DNA of 64,000 nt, from positions 74,392 to 138,391 of the forward strand of contig JAFGAS010000086.1 in assembly GCA_016933535.1 (NCBI GenBank), given 5' to 3'. The translations under genes and the position numbers were made by a program. Source of the DNA: Candidatus Zymogenaceae bacterium. Its GTDB lineage: Bacteria > Desulfobacterota > Zymogenia > Zymogenales > Zymogenaceae. The first letter of the stretch is position 1; every line of letters begins with the position of its first letter. The notes under the pieces were generated by a model. It was not told the origin of the DNA, did no database searches, and saw nothing but the letters and a program-made list of their open reading frames with translations. Shown here in pieces: positions 26,778-39,315 of the stretch.

Positions 26778-27299
26778 TTAGTACCCAAGTATGAGCCGAT
26801 CATGGAACTCGACTGCGAGTTTTTGGGCGAGGTCTTCCAGCGCGATCTCTTTGTAACTGTCCAGTATGCCGGCGCCTGTTCCGATACGGTAATCCTCGGT
26901 ATAAGCAAGATCCGACACTTCCCAGACAACATCGCCGCCTTTAACGAGCTTGGCTCCCGCGTGTACCGTAATCGTTACGAGGACCGCCCGGTCTTCCTCG
27001 TTATAGATACGGTTGAAATAGTCGACCGACTTGATAGTCCCGATCAGCTCGGCATCCGCGCTCTCTTTCTTCGCCGGTACCAGCGCACCCGATTTCATAA
27101 ATTCCCTTACCAGTGCATTGGTCATAATTACTCCCAGGCTCGGCTCATCAGTCTGGTTTTCGAAAGCGGGGATATAGACCTTTTTGATATCGGGTCCTAG
27201 CTGCTTCTTCACGTTCACAAAGGTATAACCGCACCCGGTTAGCGAGAGGATAATTAAGAGCGTGATGCCGATCGGCGCCACTTTTTTTATGATGTTCAT
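26778..27299 (-). CDS. lptE: LPS assembly lipoprotein LptE family
   Basis: Lipobox LTGC-GY, KVYIPAFENQT; lies between leuS and holA. Confidence 0.8.
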   Translation of the reverse strand: MNIIKKVAPIGITLLIILSLTGCGYTFVNVKKQLGPDIKKVYIPAFENQTDEPSLGVIMTNALVREFMKSGALVPAKKESADAELIGTIKSVDYFNRIYNEEDRAVLVTITVHAGAKLVKGGDVVWEVSDLAYTEDYRIGTGAGILDSYKEIALEDLAQKLAVEFHDRLILGY

Positions 27300-27417
27300 A
27301 ACATAACCCCATACCGTCTTACGGCGACGGCTAATCGTGCCAGAAACAAACCCACCCGTGACATCCCGGAAACACGGTCATAACCGCGCACTCCTGCCCC
27401 GTTATCTTTCCTCATCG

Positions 27418-29919
27418 TTACTGGATCACCACGATATTGACCAGTTTCTTTGGAACCACGATTACGTTCTTGATCTCTTTTCCCGTTATGTACCCCGTTA
27501 CCTTTTCGTCGGAAATGGCCCGCTCTCTGATCTCCTCGTCGGAGGCGTCGGCTCCCACAGAGAGCCTGCCCCTCACCTTACCGTTTACCTGCACGACGAT
27601 AGTGATCTCATCGGACTTCGCAAGCTCCTCATCCCACACAGGCCACGGTACGGTGACGATCGACGGCTTCTGGCCGAGGACGCCCCACAGCTCTTCGGCG
27701 ATATGCGGAACCGCCGGGGAAAGGAGCAATACGGCTTTCATACCGGCGTCCCTAAAGACCGCCGCATCGGCCGGCCCGACATCTTTGCCCTGCCCGACAA
27801 AGGCGTACATCTCGTTGAGGAGTTCCATCACCGCGGCGATGGCGGTGTTGAAGTGAAATCGCTCCTCTATATCCTCGGTAACCTTCTTGACGGTTTGATG
27901 GGTCTTCCTTCTCAGATCTACGCCCCGCTGCGTGATTGCCGATCCATCTCCTGGAAAGCCCTTCCCTTTTTTGATAACGTCCATGTTATCGACGATAATT
28001 CTCCACAGGCGATTGAGAAACCTGAAAGACCCGTCGATACCCTGGTCGCTCCACTCGAGCTCTTTCTCTGGCGGGGATGCAAAGAGCATGAAAAGCCTCG
28101 TCGTGTCGGCGCCGTATTTCTTTATCATGTCATCGGGGTCTATGACGTTTCCCTTTGACTTGCTCATTTTGGCGCCGTCCTTGATTACCATCCCCTGGGT
28201 AAGGAGCCGGGTGAACGGCTCCCGGTATTTCACCAGGCCGAATCTCTCCATGACGCGGCTGTAAAAGCGCGAGTAGAGCAAGTGCAGAATCGCGTGTTCT
28301 ATCCCTCCGATATACTGATCGACGGGCAGCCAGTAGTCCACCCGTTTCCCGTCAACCATCCCCCCGTCATAATCCGGACAGGAGTATCTGGCGTAGTACC
28401 AAGACGATTCCACGAAGGTATCCATGGTGTCGGTCTCACGGCGGGCCGGACCCGCGCAGCTCGGGCAGGTCGTTTTCACGAACGGCTCGTGGGACACGAG
28501 CGGAGAGCCGCCTTCTCCCGTAACCGTGACGTCCAGCGGCAGCAGTACCGGCAGTTGTTCCGGGGGCACGGGCACCACGCCGCAGCGATCACAATAGACG
28601 ATCGGAATGGGCGCGCCCCAGTAGCGCTGACGGGAGATCCCCCAGTCGCGCAATCGATAATTGACTGTCCTATTGCCCAGGTGCTTTTTCTCCAGGTCGT
28701 CGATAATCGCGTCCATCGCCGCACGGTTGTTCATACCATTAAAAGCCCCTGAATTGACCAGGACGCCGTCCTCGACATAGGCCTCGGTCATCTCGTCGGC
28801 GCTAAGGTTTGATGATTCAGGCGAGATGACCACGATGATGGGAAGGCCGTATTTCTTGGCGAATTCAAAGTCGCGTTGGTCGTGAGCGGGCACCGCCATG
28901 ACCGCCCCCGTGCCGTATTCCATGAGGGCGAAATTAGCGGCAAAGACCGGCATCTCGTGGCCGGTAAAGGGGTTCTTACAGTAGGCGCCTACGAAAACCC
29001 CCTCTTTCTCGTAATCCTCCGACGAGCGTTTGATCCTGTCGGTCTTGAGCATCCGCTCGACAAAGCCGTCGACTTCCTTTTCCTGGGACGTGCCCCTCGA
29101 AAGCTCGATCGTGAGGGGATGCTCCGGGGCAAGCACCATAAAGGTCGCCCCGAATACGGTGTCCTGCCGGGTCGTGAAGACCGGTATGGATCCGTCCCCC
29201 TCGGCGAGCGGGAATTCTATACGGGCGCCGTAACTCTTGCCGATCCAGTTCTTCTGCATGGTCAGCACCCGCTCGGGCCAGCCGGGGAGCTTTTCGAGAT
29301 AGTCCAGGAGGTCTTCTGCAAACTCCGTGATCTTAAAAAACCAGCCGTTGATCTCTCGAGGAACCACTTCACGGTCGCATCTCCAGCACCGTCCCGCGAT
29401 GACCTGTTCGTTGGCCAACACCGTCTGGCATTCATCGCACCAGTTGACAAAAGACTTTTTCTGATACGCGAGCCCCCCCTCATACATCTTGAGGAAGAGC
29501 CACTGTTCCCATCGGTAGTATTCGGGATCACAGGTGGCCAGTTCCCGCTCCCAGTCATACGAGAAGCCCATCGCCTTGAGCTGCTTTTTCATGTAGTCGA
29601 TGTTTTCGTAGGTGAACGTCGCCGGATGAACGCCTCTTTGTATGGCGGCGTTTTCCGCCGGCATGCCGAAGGCGTCCCACCCCATCGGGTGCAGGACGTT
29701 GAACCCCCGCATCATTTTGTACCGCGCTACCAGGTCCGTAATGCTGTAGTTACGGACGTGCCCCATGTGTATCCTGCCGGAGGGATAGGGAAACATCTCC
29801 AGGACGTAGTATTTTTCTCTATCCTGGTCCTCGACGGACTTGAATGTCTTATTGTCTTCCCAAAATTTCTGCCACCTCGATTCAACGGCGGCCGGGTTGT
29901 ACTTTCCCTGAGCGGTCAT
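27418..29919 (-). CDS. leuS: Leucine--tRNA ligase
   Basis: [42 protein letters not shown]. Confidence 0.98.
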
Positions 29920-30082
29920 CGTCGGTCTCTTTTCGTTATCGGGTCATTATCATTATGAGCCGGAGTGATATCACCACCTATTATTAACATATTTAGGTAT
30001 CATATTTGTTTCGGATTTGCAAGACTAATAGTAACCGGCCCGTTGTGAGTATCCCGTTTTTCCAAAATACGGCCGTGGTCTG

Positions 30083-30091
30083 TGGTACAAT
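30083..30091 (+). promoter_or_regulatory. Extended -10 promoter (probable leaderless mRNA)
   Basis: TGG-TACAAT, 6 nt before ATG 30098; no SD. Confidence 0.5.
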
Positions 30092-30097
30092 ACCCGC

Positions 30098-32419
30098 ATG
30101 ACAAGGACCGAACCGACACGACAGGCATACATGGCCGCGATAGCAGTGGGAGGAGCTTCCATCGCCGGCCAGATCATCCTCATGCGGGAGATAATGATTC
30201 TCTTTTACGGCAACGAGCTTTCGGCAGGCATCTGTCTCTTCTCGTGGTTGTTCTGGACGGCATCCGGCAGTTTTTTCGGCACCATCGTTACCCGAAAAAG
30301 AGCCGTTGGAATACGAATTCTCCCGGCGCTGCTTCTGGCCGAATCCCTCCTGCTGCCGGCCACCGTTGTCGCCTGCCGCATCGCAAAAACGATCATCGGG
30401 ATATCCCAGGGGGAGATCATCGGAATCGGCCTGATAACGGCTATTGCGGGGGTCGTGCTGCTGCCCTTCTGTTTCTTCTCGGGATTTCTCTTTCCCCTGC
30501 TCATACGAACCGATCCGGCAGGCCCTCGAATCGACGGCGACGCCCCGGCCCGTATCTATCTCTTTGAATCCATCGGCTCATCGGTCTTCGGAATTATCAC
30601 CAGCCTTATCCTCATTCGGTATTTTGACGCGTTGACAATCTCGTTTTTCATCGGTGCCGTCGCCGGCTCGTCGGCGCTTATCATCTCACTTGTGGGCAGG
30701 CGCCGCACCCTGGTCTTCGTATCGGCGGTCATCGTCTCCCTTTTCGTCCTGCAGCCCGCCTTTTCGTTTCCTGATATCGGTGGGATCACCCGGCGTCTTC
30801 AGTGGAAAGGCTTTACGGTGGTCGAGTCGGCCGATTCTGTCTACGGGAACCTCACCGTAACCCGCTCTGGGAGCCAGACCACCTTTTACGACAGCGGAGT
30901 TCTCTCGTTCACCTATCCGGACGTGATGAGCAGCGAACTGGCCGTGATCTATCCCCTTCTTCTCCACCCTAGGCCAGTGCGGGTGCTGCTGATGGGGGGC
31001 GGAATTTCCTCGACCGTTTCCGAGATACTCAAACACCCTTCAGTTGCCGAGATCGACTACGTGGAGTTGGACCCGACACTTATCGACCTTGGCGTCAGAC
31101 ACCTCCCCCCGGAGGCAACACGCCCGCTGTCCGACGCCCGGGTTCGCGTTATCCACACGGACGGGCGCCTCTTCGTAAAAGAGGCGCGTGACCATTACGA
31201 CGTGATCATCGTCAACATGGCCGATCCCGTCAACGCCCGTATCAACCGCTACTTCACCCGGGAATTTTTCCAGGAAGTAAAGGGCATCCTTGCCTCCGGC
31301 GGGGTTTTCTCGATCTCGGTGGGCTCTTCCGAAGAGATCATCAGCCCCGTGCTCGCCTCCTTCCTCGGGAGCGTCTCCCGGACGATAGCGGCGGTCTTTC
31401 CCTTTACTGCGGTCGTTCCCGGCCAGACGGCCTTTTTCGTGGCGTCCGACCTCGCGTCCCGGATGGATATTGACCCCCAAGTCCTTATCTCCCGTATGAA
31501 TGACCGCGGGGTCGTCAACAGCTACGTTACCGAATACTATCTCCTCTATCAACTGAACGACGACCGCATCGGATATATCCGCCGTGCGATTGAAGGTACG
31601 AGAACCGCCGGGATCAATACCGACCTTTCTCCCACGGTGTACTACTACGACATGGTGCTGAGGAGCTATTCACTCTCACCCGGCCTGAAGATTGTCCTTT
31701 CCGATCTCGCCGGGTCACGGCCGAATCTCCCTGCGGCGGCCCTCGTCGTTTGCACGATCCTCTACGGCGGCTTTATCGCAGTCTGCCGCAGGAAAGGGGT
31801 TTCGCTGCCCGCCGTCACCCTGGTCCCCGCGGCGTTGGCCTCGGGATTTTCCGAGATCGCGCTTACCGTCGTCATCATCATAGCCTTTCAGACTTTCTAC
31901 GGCTACGTCTATTTCAGCCTCGGCCTGATCGTCTCGGCCTTCATGATCGGTCTTGCGGCCGGGACGGCCGCCGCCCGAGCGTGGGCCAAGGGCCTCCGTC
32001 GGCCCTGGCGGGCCCTCGTTATCGTTCAAGTCCTCTACGGCGTCTACTGCCTTTGCCTCGTGGGGGTTCTCGTCTTCTTCTCGACGTATGGATCCGGAGG
32101 GCCGCCCTGGGCATTTAGCGCGGCCTTCTCTTTGTTGAACATGTTATGCGGGATGCTTGCCGCCTTTCACTATGTCACCGCGGTGCGCTCCCTCACTTCG
32201 TCGGGCATACCCCCCAGCGCGGGTGGGTGGGTCTATGGGGCAAATCTTGCCGGCGCGGCCGCCGGCGCCCTGTTGGCATCGGTGGTCATGATCCCGATAT
32301 GGGGATTGGTTACGACAGTGCTGTTGGTCTCGGCGGTAGACCTGTGCGCGGCGGGAGTTGCCGGAATCGGGGCGGGATATTTAAGCGGTAAAACGGGCCG
32401 TGCTATCCAGGCCGGGTAA
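30098..32419 (+). CDS. Fused MFS-like / spermidine-synthase-fold membrane protein (14 TM, degenerate catalytic residues)
   Basis: 7 TM + SAM-fold domain (RVLLMGGG, YVELDP, DGRLFV, YDVIIVN..DP, FTREFF) + 7 TM. Confidence 0.85.
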   Translation: MTRTEPTRQAYMAAIAVGGASIAGQIILMREIMILFYGNELSAGICLFSWLFWTASGSFFGTIVTRKRAVGIRILPALLLAESLLLPATVVACRIAKTIIGISQGEIIGIGLITAIAGVVLLPFCFFSGFLFPLLIRTDPAGPRIDGDAPARIYLFESIGSSVFGIITSLILIRYFDALTISFFIGAVAGSSALIISLVGRRRTLVFVSAVIVSLFVLQPAFSFPDIGGITRRLQWKGFTVVESADSVYGNLTVTRSGSQTTFYDSGVLSFTYPDVMSSELAVIYPLLLHPRPVRVLLMGGGISSTVSEILKHPSVAEIDYVELDPTLIDLGVRHLPPEATRPLSDARVRVIHTDGRLFVKEARDHYDVIIVNMADPVNARINRYFTREFFQEVKGILASGGVFSISVGSSEEIISPVLASFLGSVSRTIAAVFPFTAVVPGQTAFFVASDLASRMDIDPQVLISRMNDRGVVNSYVTEYYLLYQLNDDRIGYIRRAIEGTRTAGINTDLSPTVYYYDMVLRSYSLSPGLKIVLSDLAGSRPNLPAAALVVCTILYGGFIAVCRRKGVSLPAVTLVPAALASGFSEIALTVVIIIAFQTFYGYVYFSLGLIVSAFMIGLAAGTAAARAWAKGLRRPWRALVIVQVLYGVYCLCLVGVLVFFSTYGSGGPPWAFSAAFSLLNMLCGMLAAFHYVTAVRSLTSSGIPPSAGGWVYGANLAGAAAGALLASVVMIPIWGLVTTVLLVSAVDLCAAGVAGIGAGYLSGKTGRAIQAG

Positions 32420-32446
32420 TATGGTCGAAGAATAGATCGTTTGCTC

Positions 32447-33664
32447 TCAGGCCCCCTTCGGAACCTCCCATATCCCCGCGATCGGGTACCCGCAGAAGGC
32501 GCATTTTCCCTTCTTGATCTTCACCTCTCCCACGAAGTAGCCCATCCGAAAGATAAGCATCCTGCCGCACTTCGGACAGTAGGTGGACTCGTACTTATGG
32601 CCCGGGACATTGCCGATATAGACGTATTCAAGGCCGACCCTCTTTGCCGCAGCAAAGGCCGCCTCCAGCGTCTCCACCGGCGTGTTCGGGAGGTTGGTGA
32701 GCCGATACATCGGGGTAAACCGTGAGAAATGGAGCGGTGTTTCTTTGCCGACCGCATCCCTGATCCATTCGCACATCTTGGTAATCGTTGCGATGTCGTC
32801 GTTTCTCGTGGGAACGACGAGGTTGGTGATCTCTACGTGAACCCCCGCCTTTTTGTACCCTTTGATGGAATCGAGCACGGGGGCAAGCCTCCCCTCGGTC
32901 ATAGACGAATAGTAGCCTTCGGTGAACCCCTTGAGGTCTATGTTGGCCGCCGTCAGGTACCTTGCGAGCTCCTTTCTGGGCCCGGGATTGATAAAGCCGT
33001 TTGAGTGCATGACGTTGATGAGCCCGGCCTTCTTGACGGCCCTGGCGCAGTCCAGCATATATTCGAAAAAGATCGTCGGCTCCACGTAGGTATAGGCGAC
33101 ACTGGCCGACCGGTAGGCTTTCGCCTCGTTGACGAGGGCCGCAGGCCACAGGCGGTAGTTGGCGGTGTTTTCCGGCCGGGCCTGGGAGATGTCGTAGTTC
33201 TGGCAGAACTTGCAGGTGAGGTTGCAGCCGGCGGTGGCGATGGAATATGAGGTAGTCCCCGGAAGGACGTGGAAAAACGGTTTCTTTTCGATCGGGTCGA
33301 CGTGGACGGCACAGGGATTGCCCCACACGAGGCTGTAGTATTTCCCCTTTCGGTTTTCCCTGACCTCGCAGTAGCCCCGCCTCCCGTCGCCCACCACGCA
33401 CCCCCGGGGGCACAGCAGGCACTTTACCATGCCGCCGGAAAGCGGCGTGTAGAACGGCGACTCCTTCGGCACCATGTATCCCAGCTCGGGATACCCGATC
33501 TTTAGCTCTTCCCCGGTAGTCGTGATCGGCTCGGCACAGGCAGACAGGGGCAGCCCCGCTGCGCAGAGGCCCAGCGCCCCCAGCGACACCCCGGCCAGGA
33601 AGTCCCTCCGGGATAGGGCCTCCCGGACGCCCTGTTGTCCCGCGTCCTTTCCCTTTCCACCCAC
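32447..33664 (-). CDS. amrS: AmmeMemoRadiSam system radical SAM enzyme with Tat signal
   Basis: CLLCPRGC..C, DPIEKKPFFH, GCNLTCKFCQN (CxxxCxxC), TYVEP, NIDLKGF, PLHFSRF, YVYIGNVPG, CPKC..CAFC; N-terminal SRRDFL; GTG start with GGAGG SD. Confidence 0.92.
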   Translation of the reverse strand: MGGKGKDAGQQGVREALSRRDFLAGVSLGALGLCAAGLPLSACAEPITTTGEELKIGYPELGYMVPKESPFYTPLSGGMVKCLLCPRGCVVGDGRRGYCEVRENRKGKYYSLVWGNPCAVHVDPIEKKPFFHVLPGTTSYSIATAGCNLTCKFCQNYDISQARPENTANYRLWPAALVNEAKAYRSASVAYTYVEPTIFFEYMLDCARAVKKAGLINVMHSNGFINPGPRKELARYLTAANIDLKGFTEGYYSSMTEGRLAPVLDSIKGYKKAGVHVEITNLVVPTRNDDIATITKMCEWIRDAVGKETPLHFSRFTPMYRLTNLPNTPVETLEAAFAAAKRVGLEYVYIGNVPGHKYESTYCPKCGRMLIFRMGYFVGEVKIKKGKCAFCGYPIAGIWEVPKGA

Positions 33665-33668
33665 GGCA

Positions 33669-35183
33669 CTATTCCTCCGAGAATACGTCGGCGGTAAACA
33701 CGGAGAGCCGGGCGTCTTCCTTTTTCCAGTCGCCCGGCATCAGTCCGGCCTTGTAGCAGATTTTTTCGAGATACTCGTCCAGGTCCCATCCCTGCTCTAC
33801 CGGCACCTGGGGAAGGAAGAGGCCCGACCGGCCTCCCCTGCGGATCACCAGGCCATGTTTCCCGATGACGATCTCATCGACGCTCTTGATCGGTTTGAGT
33901 TCCGAGAGCACCGATATCTCGATATCTATCTCCTTGAGCTCTTCCTTCGTCACCGGGTCGAGATAGAATCGAAGGTCGTAGACGGCCCCGAGGGCGGCCA
34001 GCGATATCGTTTCAAACAGGGGATAGACCGGCTCGATATAGCCTACGCAGCCCCGGAGCTCCCCCCCGTTGGTGAGGGTAACGAAGGCGGCACCGGGCCT
34101 TGAAAGGGCGGCCGAATTATTCGTAAAGTCAGGGATGTCTTTTCCCGACAGCTCGCACTCGATGGTTTTTCTCGCGATAGCGAGGAGCTTTTTCTTGTCG
34201 GCTGCCGTCAATCTCGTCCCGGGATCGTCCCCCATTCCCGCCGGCGGCCCTCCCCTCCCGTATACCACCGCCGAGATATATCCGACGACGGCCCCGGTTG
34301 TCCCGGTCTCAGTCCCGCTGTCGTCATACTTTGTCACCACGACCCTCGTCGAACCGAGGGCCCTTGCCGCCATAAGCGCCGTCACCACCGGTCCCCCCCC
34401 GCACGCCTCGGTCTTGCGGGTAATAAGGGCGTCGTAAAGCCCCTCGGGATCGTTCTTTTCAAGGAAGTTTCTGAAGACACCGTCGAGTTCCCGGCCTTCT
34501 TTGCGCGAGTGATAGTGCGACAGATCCGAGGAGGCGACGATCAGCACCTTTTTTCCGCCCACCGATTCCGAGATCGCCCGGGCCAGCTCCTCACACGAGG
34601 CCATGCTGACGCTGCCCATAACGACGGGAACGATCGCAAAATCACCGAGGACGACCTGGAGAAAGGGGATTTCTACCTCAACGGAGTGCTCAGGCAGATG
34701 GGGGAGCGGGTTTTTCGTGATATGCTCGCCGCTTTTTACGATCGAGTCGATCATATCGGCGTCGAGTATGACGTCGCCCAGCGGGGTACGGTACGGACCG
34801 TCTGCGTAGAGGGCCGCACCGTCGAATGAATAGTGATGGCTCGGCCCGATAATGATGACGGTGTCATAGGCCGTCCCGGCCAGCGCCTTGAATCCGGCGG
34901 CCGCCGTCTTGCCGGAATAGATATACCCGGCATGGGGAGCTATGACCGCGATCGACCGGCCCCCAACCGTTACGGCCGGCGCCTCGGCGAGGAATTGTTC
35001 GATCATCGCCCGCAAATCATTCGCATCGTCGGGATAAAAAGCCCCGGCCACTGCCGGAGGCCGGACCTTGGACTTATTGTCTGGTATATCCTGTGCGCAT
35101 GCAGATACAGCAAGGAAAATCAAGGTATAGTAAAATGCTAGGAAAAAGATTAGAATGCGTCCCCTGCAATAGGTTTCCTTCAT
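33669..35183 (-). CDS. amrB: AmmeMemoRadiSam protein B (Memo)-protein A (AMMECR1) fusion with signal peptide
   Basis: Memo motifs: RPPAVAGAFYP, APHAGYIYSG, GPSHH, EHSVEV, SSDLSHY, ACGGGP, VVGY. AMMECR1 motifs: AFVTL..LRGCVG, EISVLS, GLFLPQV, KAG. Start ATG 35183 with GAGGA SD. Confidence 0.92.
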   Translation of the reverse strand: MKETYCRGRILIFFLAFYYTLIFLAVSACAQDIPDNKSKVRPPAVAGAFYPDDANDLRAMIEQFLAEAPAVTVGGRSIAVIAPHAGYIYSGKTAAAGFKALAGTAYDTVIIIGPSHHYSFDGAALYADGPYRTPLGDVILDADMIDSIVKSGEHITKNPLPHLPEHSVEVEIPFLQVVLGDFAIVPVVMGSVSMASCEELARAISESVGGKKVLIVASSDLSHYHSRKEGRELDGVFRNFLEKNDPEGLYDALITRKTEACGGGPVVTALMAARALGSTRVVVTKYDDSGTETGTTGAVVGYISAVVYGRGGPPAGMGDDPGTRLTAADKKKLLAIARKTIECELSGKDIPDFTNNSAALSRPGAAFVTLTNGGELRGCVGYIEPVYPLFETISLAALGAVYDLRFYLDPVTKEELKEIDIEISVLSELKPIKSVDEIVIGKHGLVIRRGGRSGLFLPQVPVEQGWDLDEYLEKICYKAGLMPGDWKKEDARLSVFTADVFSEE

Positions 35184-35191
35184 TCTTTTCC

Positions 35192-35773
35192 TCAAATTAT
35201 TATACTATCTATACAACTCCTAAGCTCAGGACAAATAGTAGATAAAATACTGTAAAAGAGCTTTAAGGAACTTACTACAATAATAATCCACCATATAGGA
35301 CGTAAATACTTAAATATATTATCGTTAAATATAGTCGATATCGTATTTCCAGATCCTTTACTTTTTACCATTTTTCTGAATTCTGTATAGTATCTCTTCT
35401 CACATGGTAATCCGTTTTCTTCCCTTCTAATATTCTCTGCAAAAAAAGCAAGTCCTTCGCTTCGTTCACTAAAGATCACTTCCATAGAATTCATTATTTT
35501 ATTGTTACTACAGTATATAATTACTATTATTAAGTAGTAAATAACAAATTCTATCCACTCCTTAATCCCTGTCGTTTTATTTTCAAGTAAACTCGTGAAT
35601 AGTAGAATAGCTATTGCTACGAATATAGACTCTAAGGTAATAAAAATCCCTCGATATGACTGCAAAACGGAGTCATGCCAAAATACAGCCTGGTATAGAT
35701 GATTCAGATAATCCTGTTTATCTTCATTATTTTTGCCGTTTTTATCATTGGGCATTCCCTTATTATTTTTCAT
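35192..35773 (-). CDS. AT-rich hypothetical membrane protein (about 3 TM)
   Basis: 193-codon ORF in strongly AT-rich DNA; three hydrophobic segments. Confidence 0.7.
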   Translation of the reverse strand: MKNNKGMPNDKNGKNNEDKQDYLNHLYQAVFWHDSVLQSYRGIFITLESIFVAIAILLFTSLLENKTTGIKEWIEFVIYYLIIVIIYCSNNKIMNSMEVIFSERSEGLAFFAENIRREENGLPCEKRYYTEFRKMVKSKGSGNTISTIFNDNIFKYLRPIWWIIIVVSSLKLFYSILSTICPELRSCIDSIII

Positions 35774-35832
35774 GAACTATCTCGTCCCACCATATTTGCT
35801 ACTCTCAATTACTTTTGTAATCAGTATTACTT

Positions 35833-36051
35833 TTAATGACAACTGCCGCAATTTTTCGACGTACAGCCTCCGCAGCTGCCCCCCGATGACGATGAGACGA
35901 ACTTATCGCCGCTCTTGACGCCGCAGACCGACATCATCTTGTTTACCTGCGTGGAGGCACACTTCGGGCAGGAAACCTCGGCGGCGCGAGACATTACCAG
36001 TTCCTCAAATTCATTTCCACAGCCGCCGCATACGAATTCAAAAATCGGCAT
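35833..36051 (-). CDS. FmdB family zinc-ribbon protein
   Basis: MPIFEFVCGGCG..FEEL..CPKC; C-terminal CGGC...CGSC. Confidence 0.88.
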   Translation of the reverse strand: MPIFEFVCGGCGNEFEELVMSRAAEVSCPKCASTQVNKMMSVCGVKSGDKFVSSSSGGSCGGCTSKNCGSCH

Positions 36052-36054
36052 ATG

Positions 36055-36642
36055 CTATCTCCTGACCCAGGAGCCGTCGCCCCGCTGAATCCACCAGCCG
36101 GGGCCCGCCTGATTCTGCCAGCTGTCGGCAAAGAGCCTCTCGATCTGGGCAATCGTATCGGCCCCCAGGCCGTTGGCCGATGCGATCTCCTGGTAAAGAC
36201 GTCTGCGGTCGCCGTTGTCCGCGTCTACCAGACCGCGCATCATTCCGATTGCACCGACGTCCAGTCCGCCCTGGTTCCTGACCTCCAGGTATCCCCGATT
36301 GGTTATCCCGACGTTGCCGCCGTTATAATAGGGCATGAGTTGCGGGAACCGGCCCTCCATGGAGGAACGAATCGCCCGGATGGGCGGCGTGGATATATTG
36401 ATGTCGACTTGCGCCCAGGCGGTGTCCACAAACAATCCGGCCAGCGTAAACGGAACGGCCAGGTGTCCCTCGGGTTTGGTATCCGTGGCCGGCTCCGTTC
36501 CCTTCTTGTAGACGTCGTCGACGATTTCATCGGCCGCCTTTCGCACCGCTTCGGCCGGGAAATATATATTAACCGTAACGCATGCCCCGATAAGCAGCAT
36601 TATCGTCAAAAGTACGGGAACTACTTTTCTCATCATGGCCAA
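36055..36642 (-). CDS. YdbL/DUF1318 family lipoprotein (YnbE-like N-terminus)
   Basis: Lipobox IGAC-VTVNIYFP; GNVGITNRGYL, ADNGDRRRLYQEIA, GWWIQRGDGSW. Confidence 0.8.
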   Translation of the reverse strand: MAMMRKVVPVLLTIMLLIGACVTVNIYFPAEAVRKAADEIVDDVYKKGTEPATDTKPEGHLAVPFTLAGLFVDTAWAQVDINISTPPIRAIRSSMEGRFPQLMPYYNGGNVGITNRGYLEVRNQGGLDVGAIGMMRGLVDADNGDRRRLYQEIASANGLGADTIAQIERLFADSWQNQAGPGWWIQRGDGSWVRR

Positions 36643-36681
36643 CTCCTCCTCTGTGGCTCCTATTCGCCGCCTTGTCGGCGC

Positions 36682-39315
36682 CTACTTCGTTTCAATCTTG
36701 ATATTATTGGTGTTTTTCACGTTGATCCGTTCAAGCCGCCGCATCATGTCGTTAAACCGTATGCGGTTATTGGGGTTCTGATTGATCACGTTGATGCCGG
36801 TAATTCCGCTGCGCTTGATGAAATATTCCGTATCCCCCTCGTGAATGGTCCCCCTGAGCGTAAAATAGTCGTCCTTGAGCTCGAGGTGAATACCGATCTG
36901 CGAATAATTATAGTCATGGACGAACCGGTTAAGGCCGCTCTTGAGTACGCCCGAAAAGAGGTTCGATCCCGATCCGAGGATAGTGAGCTTATCGACAAAC
37001 TCGACGCTGACTCGTTTTTCTTGTCCCCGTTTATCGACCGTCCGGACATCGAAGACGAATCGTTCCGCCCCCCCGTAGGAGAATATCAGGTCGGAAATCC
37101 GTCCCTGGGCAATCCCGGTGACCCTGCCCACGTCGATCGTTTGGGTCAAGGCGCCCAAATCGAGGCCCGTAAATGCAACGTCACACCCGAGCCTCCTGCC
37201 GGCATCATAGATGTTCTGACCCCAGATATTTTCGATGTTTACCTCACCTTTGAATATTTTAGCAGTAAGGTTGCCCGAAGTAAACAGCTTTTTTTCCTCA
37301 ATCCTGACCTCGGAGATATCCCCGGACAGCTCTCCCTTAAGATCGAGCGCCTTCTCCTTCGTAAAGATCCCGGCAATATCGATTCCATCAACGTGTAAGG
37401 ACAGGCTTATTGTCCTGTTTTCATTGAAGATATCGCCCGCCTTAAATCCCCCGACCGTTACCGTACCGCCGGATGCCGAAAGCACCACGTCTTGCCCGAA
37501 CGTGACGGCGTTTCCCGCCAGGGCTGGAGATACGGTTATGCCCCCGATCTCGACTCCGCCTACGACGGCGCGTGAAAAGGCGATCTTCCCGAAATCTCCG
37601 GGCACAAAACGGTGGCCGGTACCGCTTTTCGGGCCGCCGGAAAGGTCAAGCGAAAAGGGCATGGACACCGATATCCCCTCGATCCTCGTGTCTATATCCG
37701 GGAAATCGAGAGACGAGCCGGCCACGGTTATATGACCGGAGACCCGCGGCGCGGACAGATTTCCCTTTATCGTACCCCTGCAATCCATCAAACCGGCTAT
37801 GGTGCCCCCGTAGATCCACGCGACGCGGTTGTTGAAGTAATTCCGAAAGAAGATATCAAAGACACTGCCCATGTCTACGGCCTTTAGACGATACGAAAGG
37901 TCTCCACTCGTATCGGTCGTGTCGAAATCGACATCTCCCGAAACCCCCGCCGTAAGGACCGAGGGGACTAAAATCTCACACGCGAGGCCCTTCACGTCCC
38001 CATCGTCGTTAATCCTACCTGAGGCCCCCATTGAGATACGCTCATTTTTAAAATCTATAAAGAAGCCCCAAAGCAGGAGGCCGAAATCATGCGCGTCCAG
38101 ACTCCCGTCAAACAATAATCCCCTCTTTATATCGTCCCTGAATTGAATCCGCGCGGTTGCCGAGATCCCCTCCCCAATGAAAACGGCGTCGGGGGACGAA
38201 AATCCGGCATTTATCAGATCGACCTCCAGGTTGCCCGCGATGCTTCCGTCGTCGGTATCGACCGTTCCCATCGTCAGGATACCATGCGACCGACCCTTTA
38301 TCTCCCACCCCGCGAGAAAATCGGGCAGGTGGTCCCCGAGGCGCTTGAGGTTTTCGGTTGACAGCCTCAGGGATTCCGAGCCTGACGTCATCTTCCACCT
38401 CCCATTCTCCTCGACTGCCAGGTCAAGGGACACGTCTCCGAAAACGGGAACCGAGAGCACCACGTCACTCAACATGAGTGTTCCGCGGCTCTCATTTTTC
38501 ATCGAGCCGGTGGCGCTGACGTTATCGAGCCCTATTCCGCCCCCATCCTCGGTTATGGAAAGGCCGCTGATCGCGGCGTCCGTCGCCTCAACGGAGTCGG
38601 GGTCCAGCCGGATGCGCGCGTCGAGCTGTTCTCCCGAAAAGAGGTACTCTCCGATTCGATAGCCCGATCCTTCCGTCGTGATGTCGCCCCGTGCCGAAAT
38701 GTCCGGATAGGTACCGGAGATATGCATCAGCGCGCTAAACGGCCCGCCAAGTATTACTCCGTCCTCCATCCCCTCCGTCCTTGCCGAACCCGCGATCGTG
38801 AGGGTTGCCCCAACGATACCGCGCTCGTAGCTCATGTCCACGTCCAGGAACGCGTACAGCCGTGCACCGTCGATCACGACAAATTCGCCGTCAACAACGA
38901 CGATATCCATTTCCATGATTCTTCGGACGATCTGCTGTCCGTTTTCACCCCCCCCGGGTGAGATATCCAGGGATACCGAGGGGGCGTGAACCGTGACCTT
39001 CTTTATTGCAAGGGGAGGGTTGATACCGAGGCCCAACTCGAGGGTGGCCGCACCGGATGAGAAGACGGTCGAGCCGATGACCAGATACATCGCCTCTACA
39101 GTGATCCGGCCGGGAGACACCATGTGTATTCCCGTCAATGACACCCGGTAGCCGACGGTTCGTTCCACGACGCGTCTGACGGCATCACTGATCAGCTCGT
39201 TACCGAAATAGTAGTAGAAGACCGCGATTATCGTTACCGACGCTAAAAAAACGGTCAGACAAAAGACCCAGATTATCCGGGCGGCGCCGGTTCCTTTCTT
39301 TAACTTCTTGGACAT
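36682..39315 (-). CDS. YdbH/AsmA-like intermembrane bridge protein
   Basis: Single N-terminal TM, long beta-rich Gly-rich body, conserved-looking C-terminus (YNYSQIG..FTLRG..INVINQNP..IRFNDM); upstream of a ydbL-like gene. Confidence 0.7.
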   Translation of the reverse strand: MSKKLKKGTGAARIIWVFCLTVFLASVTIIAVFYYYFGNELISDAVRRVVERTVGYRVSLTGIHMVSPGRITVEAMYLVIGSTVFSSGAATLELGLGINPPLAIKKVTVHAPSVSLDISPGGGENGQQIVRRIMEMDIVVVDGEFVVIDGARLYAFLDVDMSYERGIVGATLTIAGSARTEGMEDGVILGGPFSALMHISGTYPDISARGDITTEGSGYRIGEYLFSGEQLDARIRLDPDSVEATDAAISGLSITEDGGGIGLDNVSATGSMKNESRGTLMLSDVVLSVPVFGDVSLDLAVEENGRWKMTSGSESLRLSTENLKRLGDHLPDFLAGWEIKGRSHGILTMGTVDTDDGSIAGNLEVDLINAGFSSPDAVFIGEGISATARIQFRDDIKRGLLFDGSLDAHDFGLLLWGFFIDFKNERISMGASGRINDDGDVKGLACEILVPSVLTAGVSGDVDFDTTDTSGDLSYRLKAVDMGSVFDIFFRNYFNNRVAWIYGGTIAGLMDCRGTIKGNLSAPRVSGHITVAGSSLDFPDIDTRIEGISVSMPFSLDLSGGPKSGTGHRFVPGDFGKIAFSRAVVGGVEIGGITVSPALAGNAVTFGQDVVLSASGGTVTVGGFKAGDIFNENRTISLSLHVDGIDIAGIFTKEKALDLKGELSGDISEVRIEEKKLFTSGNLTAKIFKGEVNIENIWGQNIYDAGRRLGCDVAFTGLDLGALTQTIDVGRVTGIAQGRISDLIFSYGGAERFVFDVRTVDKRGQEKRVSVEFVDKLTILGSGSNLFSGVLKSGLNRFVHDYNYSQIGIHLELKDDYFTLRGTIHEGDTEYFIKRSGITGINVINQNPNNRIRFNDMMRRLERINVKNTNNIKIETK

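Follow-up and report, generated by a model that had tools for sequence, protein, structure and literature searches.

A signal-bearing AmmeMemoRadiSam gene set beside a membrane protein with a predicted outward SpeE-fold domain: a candidate extracytoplasmic radical SAM system

We analysed a window of 64,000 nucleotides (nt) from Candidatus Zymogenaceae bacterium (assembly GCA_016933535.1, contig JAFGAS010000086.1, positions 74,392 to 138,391 of the forward strand), in which a set of AmmeMemoRadiSam genes lies next to a gene for a 773-residue membrane protein with a domain of the spermidine synthase (SpeE) fold. The set encodes the radical S-adenosylmethionine (SAM) enzyme AmrS and a fusion of AmrB (Memo) with AmrA (AMMECR1), here called AmrB-A. 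The features to which a sequence-only reading of this DNA had drawn attention, at positions 30098-35183, are present in the sequence and recur well beyond this genome, and the module is a second, signal-bearing gene set beside the ordinary AmmeMemoRadiSam copies of the same organism. The three proteins probably form a functional unit outside the cytoplasm. As the best explanation overall we lean, cautiously, towards an envelope variant of AmmeMemoRadiSam in which the membrane protein handles SAM or a related adenosyl compound. The features of the locus are listed below, with the evidence for each in brackets; TM denotes a transmembrane helix, AF2 an AlphaFold2 model, ORF an open reading frame, MFS the major facilitator superfamily, and Tat and Sec the twin-arginine translocation and general secretion routes.

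30098..32419, plus strand: 773-residue membrane protein, predicted MFS-like 12-TM core with an inserted TM7/SpeE-fold domain/TM8 segment (ORF, Pfam, AF2)
30110..30688, plus strand: TM1-TM6, residues 5-197, first 6-TM half (AF2, hhalign)
30704..30760, plus strand: TM7, residues 203-221, predicted to run from inside to outside (AF2, K+R counting)
30776..31717, plus strand: SpeE-fold domain, residues 227-540, predicted to face outward (AF2, structure and sequence matches, K+R counting)
31727..31792, plus strand: TM8, residues 544-565, predicted to run from outside to inside (AF2, K+R counting)
31805..32413, plus strand: TM9-TM14, residues 570-772, second 6-TM half (AF2, hhalign)
32420..32446, no strand: intergenic gap of 27 nt between two convergent stop codons (ORF coordinates)
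32447..33664, minus strand: amrS, AmmeMemoRadiSam radical SAM enzyme, 405 residues, envelope-type clade (TIGR04337, tree)
33203..33226, minus strand: AmrS radical SAM cluster motif C147-x3-C151-x2-C154 (alignment)
33533..33664, minus strand: AmrS signal, residues 1-44, with S18-R19-R20-D-F-L, a hydrophobic h-region and L40-S41-A42-C43-A44 (sequence, TIGR01409)
33669..35195, minus strand: amrB-amrA fusion, Memo at residues 47-310 and AMMECR1 at residues 339-505 (Pfam, NCBIfam)
35094..35195, minus strand: AmrB-A Sec-type/lipobox signal, residues 1-34, ending V30-S31-A32-C33-A34 (sequence)

The family assignments of the enzymes are clear. AmrS scored 356.3 bits with TIGR04337 (cut-off 220) and 65.9 bits with the Pfam family PF04055 (Radical_SAM), AmrB 266.7 bits with TIGR04336 (cut-off 26) and AmrA 160.1 bits with TIGR04335 (cut-off 99), and the fusion also matched the Pfam families Memo and AMMECR1. 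In all 39 aligned AmrS sequences the cysteines of the CxxxCxxC motif (C147, C151, C154) are unchanged, and the nearest characterised families are glycyl-radical activases (PflA with 49.7 bits, the YjjW activase and NrdG). The amrB-amrA ORF encodes 508 residues when counted from a TTG codon; the first ATG, at 35183, is the likely start. Its stop lies 4 nt ahead of the amrS start. The convergence of the membrane protein gene on amrS with a gap of 27 nt, noted in the sequence-only reading, is borne out by the ORF coordinates, and the same convergent order is found in genomes of the same genus and family (loci L091, L097 and L099).

Both enzymes start with a putative export signal ending in S-A-C-A, as had been claimed from the sequence alone. 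The N-terminal region of AmrS contains ...LSRRDFLAGVSLGALGLCAAGLPLSACA, followed by EP, with a twin-arginine motif (SRRDFLAG), a hydrophobic stretch and then L-S-A-C-A, whereas AmrB-A begins with MKETYCRGRILIFFLAFYYTLIFLAVSACA, followed by QD, in which a basic n-region precedes a 17-residue hydrophobic stretch and V-S-A-C-A. The lipobox at the end of a signal has the consensus [LVI][ASTVI][GAS]C, and both LSAC of AmrS and VSAC of AmrB-A match it. The copies from the same genus or family retain the RR motif on AmrS and a signal on AmrB-A (4/4); the lipobox cysteine is retained in two of three of these AmrS copies (L097 and L099, not L091) and in three of four AmrB-A copies, and in other phyla it is not a general feature.

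Scanning a single genome for each species, we obtained at least 600 relatives of the window AmrS, and we analysed the best 80 loci. Signals were called with a regular expression, by hydropathy and by eye, with RR or KR followed by F/L-L/I defining the Tat type. Read by eye, 58 of the 80 AmrS proteins have a Tat-type signal, 18 (13 of them in Omnitrophota) a Sec-type signal and 4 no signal; the crude regular expression gave 57, 16 and 7, and the class was revised by eye for L026, L036, L047, L039, L053, L072 and L077. AmrB matches were found in 31 of the 80 loci and share a single reading frame with AmrA in 27 of these. A signal-like N-terminus, several times with a lipobox, precedes the conserved AmrB start in 30 of the 31 (by eye), and the one other locus is cut by a contig end. 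The sequence-only reading had proposed asking whether orthologues keep the signals; by eye, 76 of 80 AmrS and 30 of 31 AmrB proteins do.

The window module stands apart from the other AmmeMemoRadiSam genes of its own genome. The genome has three AmrS genes, of which only the window copy carries a signal; the other two start directly at the conserved core. Separate, signal-less AmrB and AmrA genes lie on two further contigs, and none of these ordinary signal-less genes is linked to a gene for a SpeE-like protein. We placed 110 AmrS cores in a tree by a quick maximum-likelihood search with an arbitrary root, after L060, L076 and L117 had failed the filter for length or stops and L090 had been dropped as a duplicate of the window. 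All 91 signal-bearing rows, with the window AmrS among them, fell into one group of 99 rows (SH-aLRT 91). Eleven signal-less, unlinked rows, including the genome's two other copies, lie outside the group, and the signal state requires two changes on the tree.

The gene for the membrane protein is often linked to signal-bearing AmrS. A homologue of the 773-residue protein was found in 43 of the 80 AmrS loci, spread over at least 13 named phyla and in three arrangements (downstream in the same direction in 20 loci, upstream in the same direction in 7 and convergent in 16). The gaps between the matched regions are as small as 6-9 nt, and in L048, L059 and L074 the ORF coordinates overlap; some of the co-directional loci have overlapping stop and start codons. 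The SpeE-like gene is present in 26 of the 46 well-flanked loci (5 kb or more to either side). As controls we took ten AmrS loci from the same phylum that were picked for short open frames, all of them signal-less; the SpeE-like gene was within 6 kb of AmrS in none of the ten. The expected co-occurrence of signal-bearing AmrS with this gene, another check proposed with the sequence-only reading, is thus seen in 43 of 80 loci versus 0 of 10 controls. Across 301 genomes of the phylum, for the 150 AmrS matches listed of 482, the SpeE-like gene lies within 5 kb of 18 of 79 long-frame and 3 of 71 short-frame AmrS genes. At the level of whole genomes, and among the matches listed, it co-occurs with long-frame AmrS in 62 of 72 genomes, compared with 22 of 51, and full-length SpeE-like matches occur in at least 117 of the 301 genomes. 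The genus g2 of the same family (3 genomes, 88-99% complete) lacks all three module components together, yet has a cytoplasmic set: no SpeE-like gene was found in its three genomes, its best AmrS matches reach only 38-41% identity, and its AmrB and AmrA are not fused. In the remaining genera of the family the module is present.

Some homologous loci differ in form. In a genome of the same genus (G157:C1:462458-467205), amrS is split into two parts and amrBA into three, and the match to the SpeE-like protein begins at profile position 93; the broken frames could reflect joint decay or indel errors of this 5-contig long-read assembly. Four SpeE-like matches lie in long open frames of 1032-1309 residues (G148:C44:9835-12063, G267:C15:56142-58370, G239:C76:10396-12642 and G248:C8:30397-32520), which suggests extended or fused forms. 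For L132 and L133 the C-terminal TM half of the SpeE-like protein gave no tblastn match.

The membrane protein has an unusual predicted architecture. The hydropathy profile of the family shows 7 + 7 peaks, and the AlphaFold2 model, built with 39 homologues (mean pLDDT 89.3, pTM 0.90), has 14 TM helices, with seven before and seven after a mixed alpha/beta domain (residues 227-540). Lysine and arginine (K+R) are unevenly distributed between alternate loops (means of 15.5 versus 2.4), with the bias in 39 of 39 sequences, and we therefore place the SpeE-like domain outside and, on the inner side, both termini and the loop that follows TM6. Hydropathy, model and charge bias thus agree with the earlier proposal of a 14-TM protein with an outward fold of the SAM-binding type. 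TM1-6 and TM9-14 are homologous to each other (hhalign probability 98.8%, E 5.7e-17, 182 columns; residues 6-196 versus 571-755). Pfam searches with each TM half alone gave no family even at E 10. An Atlas structure search with residues 566-773 returned MFS models with TM-scores of 0.68-0.71 over 182-191 residues, which the search flags as under its bar and as leads only, and a Foldseek search of the whole model against the PDB gave only SpeE and methyltransferase chains and none for the TM core. On these predictions, the protein is best described as an MFS-like 12-TM core whose central loop holds a TM7/TM8 hairpin displaying the SpeE-fold domain on the outside.

The outward domain matches PF01564 (Spermine_synth) at residues 282-448 with 92.2 bits (cut-off 22.9). 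It missed the equivalog cut-offs of NF002956 (132.8 versus 472), NF002010 (111.8 versus 260) and TIGR00417 (95.2 versus 249.6). Its best solved matches are Thermus SpeE structures (1uir/3anx; sequence E 3e-23), and Foldseek aligned it with Thermus SpeE at E 9e-14 and a TM-score of 0.76, and with aminopropyltransferases at TM-scores of 0.74-0.78, normalised to target length. Conservation is 90% or higher for the glycine loop (G300) and for the nucleoside-binding residues E323, D325 and D355. Other key positions have changed: the GGG[D/E]G motif is replaced by GGGIS in the window (family consensus GGGxxG), and the first Asp of D-x-x-D by Asn, giving N-M-A-D in the window (family consensus N-L-P-x-P). 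There is also a new invariant pair, N383-R384, within a conserved motif of P377, N383, R384 and T387. In SpeE, the lost acids bind the amine of decarboxylated SAM (dcSAM), exclude the carboxylate of SAM and deprotonate the acceptor amine. AdoMet (SAM) decarboxylase PF02675 was found in none of the 10 genomes of the family, this one included and six of them carrying the membrane protein gene; the eukaryote-type PF01536 was not searched. By these features the domain is not an ordinary spermidine synthase, and we infer that its ligand is an adenosyl compound distinct from dcSAM.

A complex was predicted for mature AmrS (residues 62-405) and the outward domain (residues 224-543), with alignments of 39 homologues for either protein; the sequence-only reading had proposed a complex model as a check. 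The two are predicted to dock with an ipSAE of 0.76 in three runs, and the best control reached 0.01. Of 80 solved complexes, 58 attained the mark we used for ipSAE, as did 2 of 110 mismatched pairs, a calibration that is only rough because custom alignments were used. The runs share at least 83% of their contacts, the partner pLDDT is 91, and the AmrS interface includes residues 155-168, directly after the cluster motif. We know of no solved complex of the AmrS and SpeE-like families, and recall of a template is therefore unlikely.

These observations can be combined into a scheme, which we put forward tentatively, for radical SAM chemistry outside the cytoplasm: SAM export or adenosyl recycling by the MFS-like core, hand-over by the SpeE-fold domain to Tat-exported AmrS, and action of the Memo-AMMECR1 lipoprotein on an envelope substrate. 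AmrS would be exported folded, with its [4Fe-4S] cluster, by Tat, and is probably lipid-anchored in this genus, and the AmrB-AmrA fusion would be exported by Sec as a lipoprotein. Both would act on the outer side of the cytoplasmic membrane together with the 14-TM protein, whose TM7/TM8 hairpin would display the adenosyl-binding SpeE-fold domain outside, where AmrS would dock. The MFS-like core may move SAM to the outward domain or take back 5'-deoxyadenosine/methionine. Lacking the residues for aminopropyl transfer and for exclusion of the SAM carboxylate, the outward domain may present or exchange an adenosyl compound at AmrS, and AmrB-A may bind and process the substrate, for which a lipid or glycan of the envelope is presumed. 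SAM supply or removal of adenosyl by-products as the specific role of the membrane protein would suit the lost aminopropyl-transfer residues, the failure to find a dcSAM source (PF02675) in the family and the docking that was predicted; taken by itself this assignment is possible and well short of probable.

Several results weigh against this scheme. On the side of export, the TAT model TIGR01409 gave AmrS 16.9 bits at a cut-off of 16.7, a bare pass by 0.2 bits. The 18 relatives with a Sec-type signal on AmrS would export an unfolded, cluster-free protein, and we know of no insertion of iron-sulfur clusters outside the cytoplasm, as this would imply. For TatC (PF00902), the window's own assembly (86 contigs, 89% complete) gave no match, although all 20 relatives searched, among them 3 of 3 of the same genus, gave one; incompleteness of the assembly is the likeliest cause. 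Eight signal-less AmrS proteins lie inside the envelope group (L031, L047, L051 and L075 from among the 80 relatives, plus L118, L119, L132 and L133), and they adjoin an exported AmrB-A and/or an outward SpeE-like protein, the latter with the same topology, TM7/TM8 included, in six of the eight loci. Five of the eight group together at the base of the envelope clade (SH-aLRT 97). A Tat-bearing partner with which signal-less AmrS could hitch-hike was found in none of six of the eight loci, with weak candidates in L118 and L132 only. These cases leave room for an AmrS that works from inside the cell or alters its partners ahead of their export. The delivery of cluster-loaded AmrS by Tat, as first proposed for this locus, therefore stands in part: the Tat-type signals in the window and in 58 of 80 relatives agree with it, whereas the Sec-type signals, the eight signal-less proteins beside exported partners and the failure to find TatC in this assembly do not.

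Other results on this side concern linkage, docking and electrons. Since the window genes are convergent, the membrane protein gene is not co-transcribed with amrS and amrBA. Thirteen of the 46 well-flanked loci have neither the SpeE-like gene nor AmrB-A nearby, and adjacency to AmrS is frequent but not obligatory, because only 10 of 29 SpeE-like loci of the phylum have AmrS within 1.5 kb. The AmrS tree has moderate support and comes from a quick search with an arbitrary root. The predicted interface omits the nucleoside-pocket residues of the SpeE-like domain, and its conservation is barely raised (0.71 versus 0.64 overall; for clade-specific positions, 0.19 versus 0.11); we did not count this comparison of the envelope clade with cytoplasmic AmrS as support for the docking, the difference being too small. 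Finally, no electron donor is encoded in the window. With all this, the proposal that the three proteins constitute a radical SAM machine of the envelope holds in its core, where signals, linkage (43/80), joint absence from g2, topology and docking describe a conserved unit, and is weakened by linkage that is not universal and by the signal-less AmrS cases.

In other lineages the neighbours of the module include redox proteins, which may carry electrons to the outside; none of these neighbours lies in the window. A DsbD_2/CcdA-like membrane gene is present in 14 loci and, in Sec-type loci, usually lies between amrS and the SpeE-like gene; DUF362 proteins, several with Tat signals, are found in 20 loci, secreted DUF6599 proteins in 12 and Fer4_5 polyferredoxin membrane proteins in 10. 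L034:7914-11953 is a Sec-type example (range L026-L066, Omnitrophota and others), and L078:4480-7842 shows the DUF362/DUF6599/Fer4_5 type (L045-L082: Acidobacteriota, Aminicenantota and others). In the genome studied here, a DUF362-like gene and a polyferredoxin gene lie together on contig C10 (~98981-100903); we rejected them as partners of the module, as they are away from the window and cannot be tied to the locus.

The first alternative we weighed, which we consider rather unlikely, is that the membrane protein is itself a transferase. Its SpeE-fold domain would move a methyl, aminocarboxypropyl or similar group onto an envelope molecule that the MFS-like core flips or presents, and AmrS and AmrB-A would modify the same molecule further; SAM would not be supplied by the membrane protein, and AmrS could carry bound SAM through Tat and regenerate it. 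The nucleoside-binding residues and the invariant P377, N383, R384 and T387 are indeed conserved in the manner of an active site, the fold matches that of aminopropyltransferases (TM-scores of 0.74-0.78), the predicted AmrS interface avoids the pocket residues, and 19 of the 29 phylum SpeE-like genes have no adjacent AmrS, which suggests a function of their own. However, the acids that deprotonate the amine in SpeE are replaced, the predicted docking puts the active-site face of AmrS on the domain, and, among the matches listed, the SpeE-like gene co-occurs with long-frame AmrS (62/72 versus 22/51 genomes). A donor would still be needed outside, so that the supply problem stays.

The signal-less AmrS proteins bear on a second alternative, in which AmrS would be a maturase of proteins, similar to the activase of pyruvate formate-lyase (PFL), with AmrB-A or the SpeE-like domain as its target. 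Lineages with a signal-less AmrS (Nitrospirota) would modify the target in the cytoplasm before Sec export, as anaerobic sulfatase maturases do or as in the case of HxsA. Glycyl-radical activases are the nearest relatives of AmrS (PflA 49.7 bits, YjjW activase, NrdG), and eight signal-less AmrS are linked to an exported AmrB-A and/or SpeE-like protein. Activases bind their protein substrates at the face beside the cluster motif, and it is over this face of AmrS that the predicted complex sets the SpeE-like domain. A precedent is the HXS system, with radical SAM maturation of the periplasmic HxsA effector (PMC13128918). We nevertheless regard a maturase as improbable: 76 of 80 AmrS proteins carry signals, for which a maturase acting in the cytoplasm has no use, a radical on a protein would be lost during Sec export, the invariant columns of AmrB-A and of the SpeE-like domain contain no motif of the glycyl-radical type, and cytoplasmic AmmeMemoRadiSam systems lack a SpeE-like partner.

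That the N-terminal segments are not used for export at all, being mis-called starts or tethers on cytoplasmic enzymes in a meaningless neighbourhood, would suit the margin of 0.2 bits in the TAT model, the failure to find TatC in an assembly that is 89% complete and the convergence of genes that are not one operon, but is very improbable in view of the S/T-R-R-x-F-L motifs in 58 of 80 relatives across phyla, the AmrB signals in 30 of 31 loci, TatC in 20 of 20 relatives, linkage in three gene orders with some overlapping stop and start codons and 0 of 10 in the controls, the sister genus g2 without all three components together, the topology bias in 39 of 39 sequences and a docking score of 0.76 against 0.01 for the best control.

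Around the module, orf193 (35192-35773, minus strand) encodes 193 residues with about three hydrophobic segments, and its stop overlaps the TTG of amrBA; the region is low in G+C (0.50 at 34001-36000, 0.55-0.60 around it). We rejected it as a fourth component: it has no Pfam or NCBIfam match, tblastn found no homologue in the 80 loci, and none was found upstream of amrBA in four genomes of the same genus or family. It is probably a lineage-specific insertion. The flanks (26778-29919 and 36055-39315) hold envelope or housekeeping genes, with LptE (PF04390) and leucyl-tRNA synthetase on one side and, on the other, a DUF1318 lipoprotein-like gene and a gene for an 877-residue membrane-anchored protein without a Pfam match; these genes show no link to the module in other genomes. 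In 29800-36100, a search for promoters and terminators returned about as many hits as expected from shuffled sequence, none of them useful.

Conservation of Memo and AMMECR1 extends from bacteria to humans, and both are linked to human disease, yet to our knowledge neither has a known biochemical function; nor do we know of a substrate for the bacterial three-gene AmmeMemoRadiSam system. If a whole such system has moved to the envelope together with a specific membrane partner, its substrates are narrowed to molecules of the membrane surface, and the envelope clade brings the substrate within reach of standard genetic, fractionation and binding experiments. Should AmrS act outside the cytoplasm, radical SAM chemistry would no longer be confined to it, and SAM, electrons and, in Sec-type lineages, iron-sulfur clusters would have to reach the periplasm of anaerobes. 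A common SpeE-fold/MFS-like protein would gain its first functional context. The scheme, if true, would describe the first extracytoplasmic radical SAM pathway and give a first handle on the substrate class of AmmeMemoRadiSam, Memo and AMMECR1. A 2019 article of Burroughs et al. in J Biol Chem reportedly extends, in its abstract, the gene contexts of Memo. Our literature search found no description of exported AmrS, of periplasmic radical SAM enzymes or of this membrane partner, and that article may overlap with the present work. PMC7159879 cites Burroughs et al. 2019 for the description of Memo-AMMECR1 systems.

Among known systems, the closest is AmmeMemoRadiSam itself, with which the module shares all three families, each above its cut-off and adjacent to the others, and the invariant radical SAM cysteines. 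It differs in the Tat signal on the window AmrS, in the fusion of AmrB and AmrA behind a Sec/lipobox signal, and in the 14-TM SpeE-like protein as a conserved extra partner. Tat-exported iron-sulfur proteins, such as the small subunits of hydrogenases and subunits of DMSO reductase, likewise have a twin-arginine signal on a protein that folds around its cluster before export. AmrS would in addition need SAM and a low-potential electron donor outside, and we know of no radical SAM enzyme described as a Tat substrate, nor did our literature search find one. The anaerobic sulfatase-maturing enzyme (anSME) is a cytoplasmic radical SAM maturase of exported proteins. It and the HXS system resemble the module in tying radical SAM chemistry to a periplasmic end product, a likeness that may fit the eight signal-less AmrS adjoining an exported AmrB-A and/or SpeE-like protein; the enzyme stays in the cytoplasm there, whereas here 76 of 80 relatives have an export signal on the enzyme.

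Spermidine synthases (PF01564, Thermus SpeE 1uir/3anx and including the membrane-anchored PRK03612 type) have the same fold and nucleoside-binding residues as the outward domain. In contrast to them, the domain stays below every equivalog cut-off, carries the GGGIS and Asn changes, is predicted to face outward and comes from a bacterial family in 10 genomes of which AdoMet decarboxylase PF02675 was not found. The membrane core, finally, resembles the fused MFS/spermidine synthases (NF037959) and MFS transporters in having two homologous 6-TM halves in the same orientation, and the neighbours of the predicted structure of its second half, as leads, are MFS models. In MFS transporters the N-terminus, the C-terminus and the loop between the halves are inside, as predicted for the 773-residue protein. 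With NF037959 it scores 37.7, below the cut-off of 40, and through the SpeE part only, and the SpeE-fold domain is inserted between the two halves on a TM hairpin and not appended.

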